DNA of 51,470 nt, taken from NCBI GenBank assembly GCA_045592865.1, contig JAZNVP010000069.1, positions 1-51,470 of the forward strand. The letters run 5' to 3'. This stretch comes from Oscillospiraceae bacterium (GTDB taxonomy: Bacteria; Bacillota; Clostridia; Oscillospirales; JAGBHD01). A model generated the notes under the pieces. That model saw only the letters and a list, made by a program, of their open reading frames with translations. It was not told the DNA's origin and made no database searches. Numbering within the stretch: position 1 is the stretch's first letter; every line of letters starts with the position of its first letter. Position numbers and translations under genes: made by a program. Shown here piece after piece: positions 160 to 39,178 of the stretch.

Positions 160-2274
160 GTGAAATATAGATTTAATGAATGGGAAGGTTTTGAAAAAGG
201 AACCTGGATGAAGGAGATAAACGTCAGAAGTTTTATTAAGCATAACTTCACTCCTTACGATGGCAACGAAGATTTTCTTTGTGAGCCCACCGCGGCAACA
301 AAGGATCTTTGGAATCAGGTTTTAGAACTGAATAAAAAGGAACGAGAAGCGGGTGGCGTTCTCGATATGGACACGAAGGTTATTTCCTCTATCGTTTCTC
401 ATGCCCCCGGTTATATCGATAAAGAAAAAGAAACGATCGTCGGTCTGCAGACCGATAAGCCGTTAAAGAGAGCGCTTATGCCTTATGGCGGTATAAGAAT
501 GGCAGAGAAGGCTTGTTCTGAGAACGGATACGAGATCGACGAAACCGTAAAGGAATACTTCACAAAGCATAGAAAGACCCACAACGCAGGTGTTTTTGAC
601 GTTTACACGCCCGAAATGCGTGCCTGCCGTTCGAGTCACATTATAACGGGACTCCCCGATGCTTACGGAAGAGGCCGTATTATAGGTGACTATCGCCGCG
701 TTGCGCTTTACGGTGTTGACAGACTCATTGAAGATAAAATGGCTCAGAAAGAGACTACCCGCTCAACGATGTTTGAGAACATCATAAGAGCGAGAGAGGA
801 ACTCTCGGAGCAGCTTCGTGCGCTCGAGGACCTCAAAACTATGGCGAAAAGCTACGGATTTGATATTTCCCGTCCCGCAAAGGATACAAAGGAAGCAATT
901 CAGTGGACCTATTTCGGATATCTCGCAGCGGTTAAGGAGCAGAACGGTGCGGCAATGTCGCTCGGAAGAACCTCAACCTTCATAGATATCTATGCAGAGC
1001 GAGATCTCAAGAGGGGCGTTTATACCGAAGAAGAGCTGCAGGAGTTTGTTGACCACTTTATAATGAAACTCCGTCTTATAAAGTTCGCAAGAACCCCCGA
1101 GTATAACGCGCTTTTCTCGGGCGATCCCCAGTGGGTTACCGAGTCGATCGGCGGTGTTGCGGTCGATGGAAGACATATGGTTACTAAGATGTCTTACAGA
1201 TACCTTCACACCCTTCATAATCTTGGTGCGGCTCCCGAGCCGAATCTGACGGTGCTCTGGTCGGTAAATCTTCCCGAAAACTTCAAAAGATTTTGCGCGA
1301 AGGTTTCTATCGAGACCTCGTCGGTTCAGTATGAGAACGACGATATTATGCGTTTCCACCACGGTGACGACTATGCTATTGCTTGTTGTGTTTCCTCAAT
1401 GGTAATCGGAAAGGAAATGCAGTTCTTCGGCGCGAGAGCAAACCTTGCAAAGTGCCTCTTATACGCAATAAACGGCGGTGTTGACGAGATAACAATGAAG
1501 CAGGTGGGCCCCGAATACCGCCCGATAACAACGGAGTATCTCGACTATGACGACGTTATGAAGCGTTACGATGCTATGATGCAGTGGCTTACAGAGGTTT
1601 ACGTTAACACTCTGAATATAATTCACTATATGCACGATAAATACTGCTACGAAAAAATTCAGATGGCGCTTCACGACAAGGACGTTACCCGTTGGTTTGC
1701 AACGGGAATTGCAGGTCTTTCGGTTGTTGCCGACTCGCTCTCTGCAATTAAATACGCCAAGGTAAAGCCCATCAGAAACGAGCAGGGCATTGCTGTTGAT
1801 TATGAGGTAGAGGGCGATTTCCCCAAATACGGAAACGACGACGATAGGGTTGACGAGATTGCTTATAACATCGTTCACAGATTTATGGAGCATATCAGAA
1901 AGAACCACACCTATCGCGACAGTATTCCTACCACCTCGATCTTAACCATTACTTCAAACGTTGTTTACGGTAAAAACACCGGTGCAACACCCGACGGAAG
2001 AAAGCAGGGCGAGGCATTCGCACCCGGCGCCAACCCGATGCACAGGAGAGACACAAACGGTGCGGTTGCATCTCTCTCGTCGGTTGCAAAGCTTCCCTTT
2101 ATCGATGCCAAGGACGGTATTTCGAACACCTTCTCGATAATCCCCGGCGCACTCGGAAAGGACAATAGAATTTTCGTTGGAGATATAGATATAGATCTGG
2201 ACTGCACGTCGGGCGGATGTTCATCCCCCACACTTTTTGAAGGTCTGGACGATAATGCGAAAGGAGAAAACTAA
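160..2274 (+). CDS. pflB: Pyruvate formate-lyase (formate C-acetyltransferase) catalytic body, lacking its own C-terminal glycyl-radical domain
   Basis: 704-aa ORF with a GTG start after AAAGAGGA. It has the N-terminal NEWEGF..VRSFI block and the active-site IACCVSS. Homology runs to [11 protein letters not shown], then gives way to an unrelated 36-aa tail ending at TAA 2272-2274. Confidence 0.9.
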
Positions 2275-2516
2275 TGGCAGCAACAAACGAACAGATAGAT
2301 AATCTGGTTTCGCTTCTTGACGGATACTGCGAAAAGGGCGGACACCATCTTAACGTTAACGTTTTCACCAAGGAGACCCTTCTCGATGCACAGAAGCATC
2401 CCGAGAAATATCCTCAGCTCACCGTAAGAGTAAGCGGATATGCCGTTAACTTTATAAAACTCACAAAAGAGCAGCAGGATGAGGTCATCTCGAGAACCTT
2501 CCACGATAAGATATAA
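2274..2516 (+). CDS. Stand-alone glycyl-radical domain peptide (C-terminal piece of PFL, GrcA-like)
   Basis: 80-aa ORF whose ATG overlaps the pflB stop (TAATG), with AAAGGAG 7 nt upstream. Contains [16 protein letters not shown] and the glycyl radical motif [15 protein letters not shown]. Confidence 0.85.
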
Positions 2517-2525
2517 CAAAAAACG

Positions 2526-2559
2526 GCCGAGATCCCCAAGGGGATTTCGGCTTGATTTT
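2526..2559 (+). terminator. Intrinsic terminator/attenuator between the pfl genes and pflA
   Basis: 12-bp stem GCCGAGATCCCC-AA-GGGGATTTCGGC followed by TTGATTTT. Confidence 0.7.
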
Positions 2560-2572
2560 AAAGGAGAAAACT

Positions 2573-3322
2573 ATGAAAGGGCGCATACATTCTTATGAGA
2601 CCTTCGGCACGGTTGACGGGCCGGGAGTCAGATTCGTTCTGTTTTTGCAGGGCTGTGTAATGCGCTGTCTTTATTGCCACAACCCTGATACCTGGGAGAT
2701 AGACGCAGGGAAATTAGTAACGCCCGAAGAGGTTATCGCGGAGTTTAAGAAAAACAAAGAGTTTTATAAAAGCGGCGGAATAACCGTTACGGGCGGAGAA
2801 CCTCTTCTGCAGATAGACTTTGTAACCGAGCTTTTCTCTCTTGCAAGAAAAGAGGGAATACATACCTGCCTTGATACCTCGGGGATTACCTTTTCTCCGG
2901 AAAGAAAGGAAATTTTTGAGGAGCTTTTAAAACACACGTCGCTTTGTATGCTCGATATCAAGCATATAGACAATGAAAAGCATAAGGCTCTGACAGGGCA
3001 CGGCAACAAAAATATCCTTGAGTTTGCCTTGTTCGTTTCGGAAAAAGGCGTTCCGCTATGGATAAGGCATATAATCTTAGACGGATACACCGACGGGGAA
3101 AAAGACCTTTTGGCTCTCGGCGAGTTTATAGGAACACTCGGAAGCCTTCGGGCAATCGACGTGCTTCCCTATCACACGATGGGGGTCCATAAATACAAGG
3201 AACTCTCAATACCCTATAAATTAGAGGGCGTTTTACCGACAAGCCTTGAAAAAGCGGCAGGCTGCAAGGAGATAATTTTAGAGGGAATAAGAAAAACGAG
3301 AAATAAAAAAAGACCGATTTAA
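2573..3322 (+). CDS. pflA: Pyruvate formate-lyase activating enzyme (radical SAM)
   Basis: ATG at 2573 after AAAGGAG. Has the N-terminal SYETFGTVDGPGVRFVLFLQGC block and the CxxxCxxC cluster CLYCHNPDTW. The TTG at 2552 lies inside the terminator T-tract, so it is unlikely to be the start. Confidence 0.93.
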   Translation: MKGRIHSYETFGTVDGPGVRFVLFLQGCVMRCLYCHNPDTWEIDAGKLVTPEEVIAEFKKNKEFYKSGGITVTGGEPLLQIDFVTELFSLARKEGIHTCLDTSGITFSPERKEIFEELLKHTSLCMLDIKHIDNEKHKALTGHGNKNILEFALFVSEKGVPLWIRHIILDGYTDGEKDLLALGEFIGTLGSLRAIDVLPYHTMGVHKYKELSIPYKLEGVLPTSLEKAAGCKEIILEGIRKTRNKKRPI

Positions 3323-3336
3323 ATCGGTCTTTTTTA
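3304..3336. terminator. Bidirectional intrinsic terminator
   Basis: Perfect palindrome AGACCGATTT/AAATCGGTCT flanked by an A-run and a T-run, between convergent genes. Confidence 0.8.
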
Positions 3337-3675
3337 CTATCTTGCGATCTGCGAACGTTCTGCAACCTTTCTGAGATAGATGCATTTGTTGAGAAGATCA
3401 ATAATAAGTGTGCGATCAACAAGGTTCTGATCGCTTATTACTTTGAGATAAAACTCGACCTCAACGGCGCTCTGAATAGCATTGCAGGTGAAGGAATATA
3501 TTTCTCCCGGCTGTTTAAAAAGTGTTGCCTTATAAAGATTTATACCAATGTTGCAGCAGCTTTTAAGAAGCATTGTTGAAAGGTCCTGATAACCCGAGGT
3601 TCTCAGTTTTTCGCAGGCTTCGAAAGCCGCGTTCGTGAAAATATAAGAGTTTTCAATAACGGTTTTGTTCATCAT
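3337..3675 (-). CDS. Hypothetical protein, possibly of the four-helix-bundle family (23S rRNA IVS protein / Avd-like)
   Basis: 112-aa ORF. MLLKSCCNIGINLYKA and the later FTCNAIQSAVEVEFYLKVI resemble the QLLRSGTSIGANIEEA ... AYKEARETxYWLxLL blocks of that family. The similarity is weak. Confidence 0.45.
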   Translation of the reverse strand: MMNKTVIENSYIFTNAAFEACEKLRTSGYQDLSTMLLKSCCNIGINLYKATLFKQPGEIYSFTCNAIQSAVEVEFYLKVISDQNLVDRTLIIDLLNKCIYLRKVAERSQIAR

Positions 3676-3726: not shown

Positions 3727-4308
3727 TTAGTCAATAATTCTGATTTCTTTAATTACAGGCTGATTTTCTGCCTTAACGGTTCCGTTGGAATCGGTAACTG
3801 GGGTGTTTTCGCAGATAGCGTCAACTATCTCTATTCCCTCGGTAACGAAGCCGAAAGCGGCATACTTTCCGTTAAGATGCGCAGAATTTTCGTGAACGAT
3901 GAAAAACTGCGAGGACGCACTGTCGGGGTCGTTGGCACGTGCCATCGAAATAACGCCTCTTACGTGAGAGATGGTGTTGGAAACGCCGTTCTCGTAAAAC
4001 TCGCCCTTAATGGTCTTGTCCGACCCGCCGGTTCCGTTACCCTCGGGGTCGCCGCCCTGAATCATAAAGCCTTCGATTATTCTATGGAAGGTAAGGCCGT
4101 TATAAAAGCCCGATTTTGCGAGGTTAACAAAATTTGCAACGGTTATGGGTGCGGTATCGCCGTCAAGCTCGACCTTGATAACGCCATAGTTTTCAACTTC
4201 GATCTCAGCGTGGTGTTTTCCTGTTAACTTTTCGGGATTTGAATTACAACCTGCGAAAAGCGAAAAACACATAACAATCGCGAGAACAGAAGAAATTATC
4301 CTTTTCAT
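3727..4308 (-). CDS. Peptidyl-prolyl cis-trans isomerase, cyclophilin type, lipoprotein
   Basis: Signal peptide with lipobox LFAGC. Carries the cyclophilin blocks [15 protein letters not shown] and SQFFIV. Confidence 0.9.
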
Positions 4309-4479
4309 TTTTTATATCTCCTTATACTAAACTGAAACCATTATACCAAAAGAAAATCAAAAAAGATAGAACTTTTTATAATATTTAATGAAATTTTTGT
4401 GAATTGGCGGACAAAACTAAATATATATGGTAAAATACGGAATATAAAATAATAAGAAATACCGAAAAGAGATGAAAAA

Positions 4480-7416
4480 ATGTTAAAACTTGAAAACATA
4501 TCCAAGGTTTATAGCATTGGCGATACCACCGTAAAGGCGCTTCAAGAGGTCAATCTCGAATTCAGAAAGAGCGAGTTCGTGTCAGTCCTCGGTCAGTCGG
4601 GCTGCGGTAAAACGACCCTGCTTAATATCATCGGCGGACTGGACGCATATTCGGACGGCGACCTTTATATCAACGGAAAATCAACCAAGGAATATAAGGA
4701 CAGAGACTGGGACGTTTACCGTAACAGAAGAATAGGCTTTGTTTTTCAGAATTACAACCTGATTCCTCATCAGTCGGTTCTTCAGAACGTTGAACTTGCG
4801 CTCACCCTTTCGGGTGTTTCTCCCGCCGAAAGAAAGAGAAGGGCAAAAGAGGCGCTGGGTAAGGTAGGTCTTTCGGATCAGATAAATAAAAAGCCAAATC
4901 AGATGTCGGGCGGTCAGATGCAGAGGGTTGCAATAGCGAGAGCTTTGGTCAACGACCCCGAAATAATTCTTGCCGACGAACCGACGGGAGCGCTCGATAG
5001 CGAAACCAGTGTTCAGGTTATGGAGATATTGAAGGAAATTTCTAAAGACCGCCTTATAATAATGGTAACCCATAACCCCGAACTTGCTGAAAAGTATTCC
5101 TCGAGAATAATAAAGCTTCTCGACGGTAAGGTCATCAGCGACACCGACCCCTATAAAGAGGAAAAGGGGGAAATTAAGCATAAGTCGGAAAAGAAAAAAG
5201 CGATGTCATTTGCAACCGCAACGGGCCTTTCGCTTAATAACCTACTCACCAAAAAGGCAAGAACCTTTTTAACAAGCTTTGCAGGTTCTATAGGAATAAT
5301 CGGAATAGCGCTTATTCTTTCGGTCTCGCAGGGTGTTCAGGCGTATATAGATTCAGTGCAGGAGGATACCCTCTCAACCTACCCGATAACCTTAGAGGCA
5401 GAGAGTGCCGACTACGGCGAAATTCTTAGTACAATTATGGGAGAGGTCTCCTCTTCGGGCGCTCACGAAAACGACGCGGTCTATTCTAACAGCACGATGT
5501 TTAAGTTTCTTAACGCCCTTAGCACAATGAATAAATATGAAAACAACCTTGGTGCATTTAAGGAATATCTTGAGAAAGACGACAGTCCCTTTTCTCCCTA
5601 TATAAGCGGCGTTAGTTATTCTTATGATTTCGACATCAACCTTTACAGTAAGGACTCGAACGACGAAATAATCAAGGCGGATATAATGGAACTCCTCACC
5701 GCCGTTTACGGAGACTCAATGAAGGAGATGCAGTCGACCTCAATGTCGATGATGCCCATGGGTTCGGGAATAAACGTTTTCGAGGAAATGCTTCCCTCGT
5801 TAAGCGGAGAACCGGTAAGCGAACTGCTTCGTGAACAGTATGACGTTGTATACGGTCACTGGCCCGAAAGCTATAACGAAATAGTGCTTGTCGTTAACGA
5901 AAACAACGAAATCGCAGACCTTAGCCTTTATGCTCTGGGACTTAAGACCCGAGAGGATATGATGGAGGCTATGGACGCGTATCTTAAGGGCGAGGAAATC
6001 AAAGCCGAAACAGAAAAATGGAGTTACGAGGAGATTACCAACAGGGAATACAGACTCGTCCTCCCGAGCGACAGATTTAAGTATAACGAGCAAACAGGAG
6101 AGTATCAGGATCTCACCGAAACCGAAACGGGACTTTCTCTCGTTTATGAAAAGGGCATTGTTTTAAAGGTTTCGGGAATTATAAGACCCTCTGAGAACGC
6201 CACCGCAACAATGCTCAAGGGCTCCATCGGTTACACCAAGCTTTTAACCGAGAAGGCGATAGCGGCTTCTGAGAATAATCTGATGGTCAAGGCTCAGCTT
6301 CAGGACGAAACGATAGATATCTTCACCGGACTTCCTTTCAAAACAAACGACTATAAGGAACCCTCGGCGGAAGAAAAAGCTGCCCTTATAACCGAATATT
6401 TCGGCGGCCTTGCGGCAGACGAGAAGGCAAATATTTATACCGATATAATGTCGACCCCCTCTAAAGAATACGTTGAGGGAGCTTTGTCTCAGGCGTTTTC
6501 AAATATGAGCAGAGCCGACATCCAAGCGCAGATAATCGAGGGTATAGCAGCGAGCGGTGAGGTCGATAAGTCCACCGCCGAGGAATATTTTGCCGATATG
6601 TCGGACGAAGACTTTATGAACTTTGCAGAGAGCAGATACCGCGAAATGATCGAGGCGAAATACAGAGAGTCGGTCAAGGCTCAACTCGCGCCTATGTCGA
6701 TAGAAATGCTCTCGGCGCAGTTCGATGCTATGATACCGACCTTCGACGGAGAGAAAAAAGCAAATCTTTATGACCTTTATATGCCGCCGACCGTTTCGGA
6801 AAGCACCCTTAAAGAAAACCTCAAAAAACTCGGAGTTGTTGATCTTGACAGTCCTTCTGCGATAAATATTTACACAAAGACCTTCGAGGATAAGGATTTC
6901 ATAACCGCCGAAATTGATAAATATAACGACGGAACAACCGAGGAAAACGAGATAAGATATACCGACTATATGGGTATTATGATGAGTTCAATAACCACCA
7001 TAATCAACGCCATTTCCTACGTGCTTATCGCCTTTGTTGCGATCTCTCTGGTGGTTTCGTCGATAATGATAGGAATTATAACCTATATCTCGGTGCTCGA
7101 AAGAACCAAAGAGATCGGTATTCTCAGAGCGATCGGTGCTTCCAAAAAGGATATCTCGAGGGTGTTCAACGCCGAAACCTTGATAGTGGGTCTTGCTTCG
7201 GGTGCGATCGGCATCGGAATGACGCTTGTTTTCAACGTGATAATCAATATTATTCTCCACGCCGTTACGGGAATACCCACCCTTAACGCAGTTCTTCCGA
7301 TGGCTGCGGCGGTAATTCTCGTGGTTATCAGTATGCTTCTTACCTTTATCGCGGGACTTATCCCCTCTAAAATAGCGGCAAAGAAAAACCCCGTTGAAGC
7401 ACTCAGAACAGAATAA
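4480..7416 (+). CDS. ABC transporter with fused ATPase and MacB/FtsX-type permease
   Basis: Walker A GQSGCGKTT, signature MSGGQMQRV and Walker B ILADEPTGALD. One TM lies near aa 265-285, followed by an extracytoplasmic region of roughly 560 aa and three C-terminal TMs with an FtsX-like ERTKEIGILRAIGA block. Confidence 0.9.
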   Translation: MLKLENISKVYSIGDTTVKALQEVNLEFRKSEFVSVLGQSGCGKTTLLNIIGGLDAYSDGDLYINGKSTKEYKDRDWDVYRNRRIGFVFQNYNLIPHQSVLQNVELALTLSGVSPAERKRRAKEALGKVGLSDQINKKPNQMSGGQMQRVAIARALVNDPEIILADEPTGALDSETSVQVMEILKEISKDRLIIMVTHNPELAEKYSSRIIKLLDGKVISDTDPYKEEKGEIKHKSEKKKAMSFATATGLSLNNLLTKKARTFLTSFAGSIGIIGIALILSVSQGVQAYIDSVQEDTLSTYPITLEAESADYGEILSTIMGEVSSSGAHENDAVYSNSTMFKFLNALSTMNKYENNLGAFKEYLEKDDSPFSPYISGVSYSYDFDINLYSKDSNDEIIKADIMELLTAVYGDSMKEMQSTSMSMMPMGSGINVFEEMLPSLSGEPVSELLREQYDVVYGHWPESYNEIVLVVNENNEIADLSLYALGLKTREDMMEAMDAYLKGEEIKAETEKWSYEEITNREYRLVLPSDRFKYNEQTGEYQDLTETETGLSLVYEKGIVLKVSGIIRPSENATATMLKGSIGYTKLLTEKAIAASENNLMVKAQLQDETIDIFTGLPFKTNDYKEPSAEEKAALITEYFGGLAADEKANIYTDIMSTPSKEYVEGALSQAFSNMSRADIQAQIIEGIAASGEVDKSTAEEYFADMSDEDFMNFAESRYREMIEAKYRESVKAQLAPMSIEMLSAQFDAMIPTFDGEKKANLYDLYMPPTVSESTLKENLKKLGVVDLDSPSAINIYTKTFEDKDFITAEIDKYNDGTTEENEIRYTDYMGIMMSSITTIINAISYVLIAFVAISLVVSSIMIGIITYISVLERTKEIGILRAIGASKKDISRVFNAETLIVGLASGAIGIGMTLVFNVIINIILHAVTGIPTLNAVLPMAAAVILVVISMLLTFIAGLIPSKIAAKKNPVEALRTE

Positions 7417-39101: not shown

Positions 39102-39178
39102 GGGCCTTTAGCTCAGTTGGTCAGAGCATCCGGCTCATAACCGGCAGGTCCTGGGTTCGAATCCCCGAAGGCCCACCA
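39102..39178 (+). tRNA. tRNA with CAU anticodon (elongator Met, or lysidine-type Ile2)
   Basis: 77-nt cloverleaf GGGCCTTTAGCTCAGTTGGTCAGAGC...CTCATAA...GGTTCGAATCC...GGCCCACCA with an encoded CCA. A G1-C72 pair is present and there is no GGG/CCC anticodon stem, so it is not an initiator tRNA. Confidence 0.93.

Follow-up and report, generated by a model that had tools for sequence, protein, structure and literature searches.

The locus described here encodes an apparently split pyruvate formate-lyase (PFL). It lies in a 51,470-nucleotide (nt) stretch of DNA from an Oscillospiraceae bacterium (contig JAZNVP010000069.1 of assembly GCA_045592865.1), which is referred to as the window. Glycyl radical enzymes as a class were founded on PFL, which in gut bacteria is central to carbon metabolism without oxygen. 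On the plus strand, open reading frame (ORF) 1 (160..2274) starts with GTG and encodes 704 residues, the putative large (catalytic) subunit, with no radical-glycine segment of its own; an exact look-up of this protein gave no record. ORF2 (2274..2516, plus strand) is read in another frame, encodes a putative small subunit of 80 residues and overlaps ORF1 in a TAATG stop/start junction. On the same strand follows pflA (2573..3322), the gene for the PFL-activating radical S-adenosylmethionine enzyme, with the Shine–Dalgarno (SD) sequence AAAGGAG at 2560-2566.

The catalytic pair Cys409-Cys410 of ORF1 is encoded at 1384..1389, where IACCVSS is read directly, and is equivalent to Cys418/Cys419 of the Escherichia coli enzyme. 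The PFL-like part of ORF1 ends in ...IIPGALGKD, of which the last residue is Asp668 (2161-2163). It is directly followed by a tail of 36 residues (2164-2271), composed of module A (residues 669-681, 2164..2202; consensus KDDxIFxGDIxVDLD) and of module B with the acidic end (residues 682-704, 2203..2271), which carries two conserved cysteines and is always C-terminal. The stop codon TAA occupies 2272-2274. The SD sequence of the small subunit gene, AAAGGAG (2260..2266), is located inside the last ORF1 codons, 7 nt upstream of the ATG at 2274. ORF2 comprises, in this order, an N-terminal helix, strand β10, the glycyl-radical loop RVSGYAV and a C-terminal helix; its radical Gly55 (2436-2438) is equivalent to E. 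coli Gly734. The coordinates of both ORFs, the motifs, the SD sequence and the TAATG overlap had been given in an original prediction made from the letters of the window alone, and all of them hold on re-reading.

Up to residue ~680, E. coli PFL shares 62% identity with ORF1, and ORF2 aligns with its residues 683-756, which places the chain break at the equivalent of E. coli residue ~677. ORF1 ends ~57 residues short of the expected position of the radical glycine, and ORF2 is exactly the missing part. Residues 18-604 of ORF1 match the Pfam family PFL-like (PF02901, E 5.8e-223), and the protein scores 1100.1 bits against the PFL family NCBIfam TIGR01255 (cutoff 994.2). This profile of 744 positions is divided between the two products, with positions 1-665 in ORF1 and 663-744 in ORF2. 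The Pfam Gly_radical profile is divided in the same region: positions 1-50 fall on ORF1 residues 620-669 and positions 49-106 on ORF2 residues 3-61. The RVSGYAV motif, expected near the C-terminus of the same chain in a PFL, is absent from ORF1 and present in ORF2, so that by sequence criteria PFL function is accounted for only by ORF1 and ORF2 together. The original prediction is borne out in its claim that the gene is divided between a body and an 80-residue peptide that has a start of its own and carries the radical glycine.

ORF2 residues 21-78 align with residues 68-125 of the spare-part protein GrcA, and the only one of the GrcA families whose cutoff ORF2 passes is GrcA3 (NCBIfam NF038360), which it matches with 169.5 bits (cutoff 158) over profile positions 2-78 of 78. 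It remains below the cutoffs of GrcA (TIGR04365, 92.3 < 170) and GrcA2 (NF008341, 104.2 < 145). The pflA product scores 298 bits against TIGR02493 (cutoff 231.75) and is thereby assigned at equivalog level as the cognate PFL activase. No second intact pflB is found within the 51-kb window.

To establish how far the arrangement extends, we scanned GTDB with one genome per species and obtained 591 relatives, of which the best 80 loci were analysed. The gene is split in 79 of the 79 species loci in which both genes are readable, the window included, and no uninterrupted pflB is found at the site among these best 80 genome loci. The records of the split species are labelled Acutalibacteraceae, Oscillospiraceae and Lachnospiraceae. 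Carriers in culture include [Clostridium] asparagiforme DSM 15981, with a complete genome (NZ_CP102272.1), and Peptoniphilus duerdenii ATCC BAA-1640. Cys409 and Cys410 are invariant in 78 aligned large subunits, and in 76 of 78 loci the CX3CX2C motif of the activase is met downstream of the small gene, at a distance of no more than 900 nt.

When metagenomes were scanned with another truncated PFL as the seed, 58 split, 17 unsplit and 5 unresolved loci were obtained (58 split among the 75 that could be classified). In database searches, ORF1 retrieves at least 120 PFLs at 76-96% identity, nearly all of 696-722 residues and each ending after a similar tail; the length exceptions among the 120 listed matches are two N-terminally longer proteins of 805 and 821 residues. 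The matches of ORF2 comprise at least 120 clusters that are 89-94% identical to it and for the most part 80 residues in length. Judged from this distribution, the split is of old date and has been kept in many species, and does not reflect a one-off break.

We built a rough neighbour-joining tree on the 640-residue body. In this tree, 99 split sequences form one clade with a single cluster of four unsplit tips nested inside it. The crude tree suggests a single old origin of the split with possible re-fusion; the nested cluster could be due to re-fusion, to the split having arisen twice or to an error of the tree. Its members are L110, L125, L127 and L143, in which the chain reads ALGK-NDDQRVTNLVGLMDGY....

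The 36-residue tail bears no resemblance to canonical PFL, as had been noted in the original prediction, but it is strongly conserved among relatives. The tails align as KDDxIFxGDIxVDLD followed by CxxG(A)C, PTLFEGLD and acidic residues, with little or no variation at Cys682, Gly685, Cys687 and Pro690-Asp697. Module A is present in nearly all split types of the metagenomes and absent from unsplit PFLs. Further tail variants observed in metagenomes read CGNMACNIPN..., LEPDCACCEPN..., NFACSEPN... and DCGCCEG.... No Pfam or NCBIfam family matches the Cys module. A search of 1.84e9 representative proteins with the tail profile gave only 19 matches; each of the 17 that were retrieved stops directly behind the tail, without running on into a radical domain. 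An unsplit PFL that keeps the segment in frame was therefore not found, and the module is always C-terminal.

Pooled Nei–Gojobori counts over 458 sequence pairs gave pN 0.075, pS 0.581 and pN/pS 0.13 for the preceding 150 body codons, and pN 0.060, pS 0.666 and pN/pS 0.09 for the small ORF. For the tail (nt 2164-2250) the values are pN 0.189, pS 0.730 and pN/pS 0.26, with the restriction that all these ratios are rough, synonymous change in the tail being almost saturated. Purifying selection acts on all three regions. The interval 2164-2276 had been proposed to be an insertion that delivers stop codon, SD sequence and start codon; this proposal is not sustained, since nt 2164-2250 encode a conserved peptide, with a pN/pS of 0.26 against 0.13 for the body. 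The tandem noticed inside the interval, GATATAGATATAGAT, merely consists of D-I-D-I-D codons, which are spelled GATATAGATGTTGAC in L162, a second metagenome-assembled genome (MAG) with 96% protein identity.

Taken together, we consider it likely that the locus encodes an obligately two-subunit PFL with its activase. In this enzyme, the large subunit would provide the Cys409-Cys410 pair and all but one strand of the ten-stranded barrel, and the small subunit, corresponding to E. coli residues ~678-759, would add the helix, strand β10, the glycine finger loop and the C-terminal helix. PflA would take the hydrogen of Gly55 while the small subunit is free or only loosely docked, and the small subunit would then insert into the large one and complete the active site. 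Upon cleavage by oxygen at the glycine, only the 80-residue piece would need replacing. Attractive consequences of such a division would be that the activase gains access more easily and that a piece cleaved by oxygen is cheap to replace, and the view of the radical peptide as a detachable, replaceable part, already put forward in the original prediction, appears to be a reasonable possibility.

The proposed enzyme shares with canonical PFL (E. coli PflB with PflA; PDB 2PFL and 1H16) the barrel, the Cys-Cys pair, the RVSGYAV loop and the adjacent activase. It differs in that the last ~80 residues are a separate product and in that the body ends in the 36-residue, Cys-containing acidic tail. 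The small subunit in turn resembles GrcA/YfiD (E. coli, PDB 6OWR) and Y06I of phage T4, which are likewise small stand-alone proteins with β10, a glycine loop and, at the C-terminus, a helix. Presumably it works in trans with the PFL body, as the GrcA-type proteins do. However, GrcA (127 residues) has an unrelated, disordered N-terminus of 60 residues and coexists with full-length PflB, whereas ORF2 opens with the PFL helix exactly where its neighbor ends, and this neighbor has no radical domain.

A direct experimental precedent is the pair of E. coli PFL(1-695) and YfiD, which reached wild-type activity once activated but bound weakly (Andorfer et al. 2021, PMC8683613). As in the window, a PFL body without a radical domain is combined there with a separate radical-bearing protein, and the engineered pair is competent in trans after installation of the radical. 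Unlike the system in the window, the pair is artificial, is cut 18 residues further downstream and lacks an extra tail; the split point in the window instead puts the preceding helix on the small piece. The weak binding in the artificial pair offers a plausible reason for extra contacts in a natural one, by the retained N-terminal helix and perhaps by the tail. Located at the chain break, and paired in trans with a copy of docking elements as described below for some relatives, the tail may help to dock or latch the small subunit, or may stand in for it.

To our knowledge, the β and γ subunits of benzylsuccinate synthase and the γ subunit of 4-hydroxyphenylacetate decarboxylase bind iron–sulfur clusters and never carry the radical glycine. 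These enzymes are multi-subunit glycyl radical enzymes with small, in some cases Cys-rich, accessory polypeptides (PMC13450708). ORF2 differs from such small subunits in being the radical domain itself, and the Cys element of ORF1 has just two conserved cysteines. Accordingly, neither of the two marks of an iron–sulfur small subunit, a four-Cys motif and the absence of the radical glycine, is found: ORF2 contains the glycine and the tail has only the two conserved cysteines.

Several observations weigh against a two-subunit PFL. Binding of YfiD became weaker after removal of residues 696-733 from E. coli PFL (PMC8683613), which would imply that a two-piece enzyme needs compensating contacts. 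The large subunit predicted alone reached a mean predicted local distance difference test (pLDDT) score of 53.6, with the tail below 40, a result that is uninformative given an alignment of 78 close homologues, too shallow for the purpose; Foldseek with this low-confidence model recovered only E. coli PFL. Finally, the name under which NCBIfam lists the family of the small protein, autonomous glycyl radical cofactor (GrcA3), expresses a spare-part function.

According to that alternative, the 80-residue protein resembles GrcA in serving to repair a full-length PFL whose gene lies outside the locus, and ORF1 is a truncated paralogue that is non-essential or has a different function. Besides the NCBIfam name, the precedent of GrcA and phage T4 Y06I speaks for it, both being established spare parts (PMC13450708). 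Nevertheless, in none of the readable split loci does the neighboring PFL contain a radical domain, and therefore there is nothing within the locus for the small protein to be spare for. The truncated body is under strong purifying selection (ω ~0.07) and has retained its two adjacent cysteines. Downstream of the body there is always the small gene, followed by pflA, and its product starts exactly at the end of the body, which does not hold for GrcA with its unrelated, disordered first 60 residues. We regard the spare-part explanation as improbable. The small-protein family is thus already catalogued as GrcA3, but the spare-part name appears ill-fitting for a protein whose neighboring PFL has no radical domain of its own.

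A second alternative is that recoding, by programmed frameshift, bypass or read-through, fuses ORF1 and ORF2 into a single-chain PFL. The overlap of the two ORFs in the window, one frame apart, would allow for it. Over the 79 loci, however, the small gene lies in frame 0, +1 and +2 relative to ORF1 in 30, 28 and 21 cases, respectively, and the distance from stop to ATG ranges from -17 to 606 nt (median 28 nt), with stop codons in the longer gaps. In L025 (~4180-4790), a complete gene for a four-helix-bundle protein, flanked by short repeats of the ATTCGGAATTCG type, separates the two cistrons. Furthermore, the small ORF has its own ATG, preceded in the 79 loci by an SD-like purine-rich motif (AGGAGG/AAGGAG type), mostly at 6-10 nt, and the N-terminus of its product is conserved as M-A-A-T-x-N-Q-I-D-N-L-V across these loci. 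The tail is conserved as protein in the ORF1 frame up to the stop codon. The three frames, the variable gaps, the separate SD sequence and the spacer gene of L025 therefore exclude frameshifting or bypass as the general mode, and we consider a recoded single chain very unlikely for the window.

The variation of gap and frame also shows that the TAATG overlap of the window is a local detail; it recurs only in L069, L162 and L163. Conservation of the TAATG coupling, which the original prediction had suggested as a check, is at variance with this variation, whereas conservation of the SD sequence, likewise suggested as a check, is found throughout the 79 loci. The 14-mer AAAGGAGAAAACTA that had been pointed out as recurring is indeed present in the window at 2260 and 2560 only (2 observed versus 0.07 expected). 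It forms the ribosome-binding site (RBS) of both the small subunit gene (2260-2273) and pflA (2560-2573), and both are kept in L163. As L162 retains AAAGGAGAAAACTA at the junction only and has lost it at the pflA RBS, the pair does not represent a meaningful repeat and is probably a convergent RBS sequence rather than a repeat element. By eye, the four-helix-bundle gene of L025 is of the 23S rRNA intervening-sequence-protein kind.

That the junction is a recent lesion, be it a mobile or accidental insertion of ~113 nt, a sequencing or assembly error, or a decaying pseudogene, is scarcely credible: the tail has no counterpart in canonical PFL and contains a short GATATA repeat, but the segment has been maintained in different families as a coding sequence, has no second copy within the window and no Rfam match, and the junction is identical in L163, an independent metagenome assembly of an identical strain, and keeps frame, SD sequence and TAATG in L162 despite many substitutions and an in-frame 3-nt indel in the tail. 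These two assemblies therefore exclude an assembly or sequencing artefact. The earlier view that the locus is not a decaying frameshift is in agreement with the split in all 79 readable species loci, the SD sequence before each small gene and the purifying selection on all parts; the search for further copies of the 113-nt insert that it had called for gave none within the window, and in view of this and of the missing Rfam match a mobile element or an RNA is rejected.

In some relatives, the large subunit ends early (...VFVGDLDIELDK), and the spacer of 250-450 nt between the large and small genes encodes a third small protein of 57-93 residues, for example MDNDKRIDDIIAMLDGFTTKNGGHMNIEVNSNDINSKKVDTANSLDCSTGDMACKVPTLFEGIEDNN. 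This middle ORF is observed in L072 (~4190-4395), L076, L079, L080, L082, L088 and L094, as well as in L099, L100, L102, L124, L149, L151 and L155. The N-terminal half of its product shows homology with the first part of the radical subunit, comprising the helix and strand β10 (hhalign 95.8%, E 6.6e-9; weak matches to GrcA3). The C-terminal half is homologous to the tail of the window (hhalign 98.2%, E 3.4e-14) and carries the motif Cys-x-AC-x-P-T/N-acidic. The family comprises 52 database clusters, including [Clostridium] colinum and Tyzzerella, all annotated as hypothetical, and has no Pfam family. An AlphaFold2 model of the family (pLDDT 65), suggestive only, contains one helix and two strands and leaves the Cys end as coil or unstructured.

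As a general picture, the sequences point to a split system of three modules: the body, a Cys-acidic peptide that is either fused to the body or encoded as a small protein of its own, and the radical subunit. A more speculative possibility, to which we give little weight, is that the Cys-acidic module, on the body or on the separate protein of ~70 residues, is a degenerate pseudo-radical domain that occupies or guards the empty socket and the catalytic Cys until it is displaced by the PflA-activated 80-residue subunit; the radical would then be made on the free peptide, plugged in and swapped after oxygen damage. Derivation of the Cys motif from a degenerate copy of the RVSGYAV loop was also considered and is unsupported, the hhalign alignment stopping at the N-terminal half.

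Two solved chains named formate acetyltransferase, PDB 38LA (38la_A, 687 residues) and 38LB (38lb_A, 739 residues), are ~70% identical to ORF1 and lack a radical domain. 38LA ends one residue past ...SLGKE, and 38LB goes on with ...ALGKSGNVMFGECDM and 43 residues. They are other proteins, from organisms other than that of the window, and the tail of 38LB does not match the tail profile of the window. No small-subunit chain was deposited with either entry. Both are absent from a fold library frozen on 8 April 2026 and were apparently released later; no paper on PFL citing either code was found in the searchable literature, and a search for the locus of 38LB itself in metagenomes gave only relatives at ≤75% identity. 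The deposits indicate that such enzymes appear to be under study, so that the novelty of the arrangement may be short-lived. In the literature searched, no description of a natural split PFL was found and GrcA3 occurs in no searchable paper. A review of glycyl radical enzymes of June 2026 covers spare parts of the YfiD type only and no split PFL (PMC13450708).

The sequences thus describe what we take to be a widespread two-subunit PFL with an added conserved Cys-tail module, which is undescribed in the searchable literature. The split is conserved over many gut Clostridia and is present in cultured strains. Two long-standing questions about PFL are by what route the buried radical domain gets out of the barrel and to the activase, and in what way a spare part goes back in. 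A radical domain that is naturally separate and 80 residues long would be a ready-made system for studies of docking, activation in trans and repair, to which the third small ORF, together with the Cys tail and its conserved sequence, may add an uncharacterised component. The arrangement also bears on annotation. PGAP labels such small genes GrcA, and hundreds of genomes would carry a 'formate C-acetyltransferase' that is unable to work alone next to a 'GrcA' that is probably no spare.

ORF1 and ORF2 appear to be co-transcribed, because the genes overlap and no terminator-like element is found between them in the window. Between the small subunit gene and pflA, a terminator-like or attenuator hairpin on the plus strand (2525..2552; 12-bp GC-rich stem followed by TGATTTT) has a ΔG of -23.5 kcal/mol and a z-score of -5.07. 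It probably lowers the expression of the activase relative to the two PFL subunits. With this layout of signals, the two subunits would be expected to be made at high and similar levels and the activase at a lower one.

A further terminator-like hairpin marks the end of the operon (3306..3335; 13-bp stem with A/T-rich flanks); its strand is left unassigned, the scan having called it on the minus strand. Just downstream of pflA, the minus strand contains an ORF of 112 residues (3337-3675) with a sub-threshold match to PF05635 (24.9 versus 33.8 bits). Residue 19 of ORF2 (2328-2330) is Cys, where most relatives have Val; Cys is also found in L003, L010 and L041. Across the 51-kb window, a tRNA gene at 39102-39175 is the only Rfam match at the gathering threshold.

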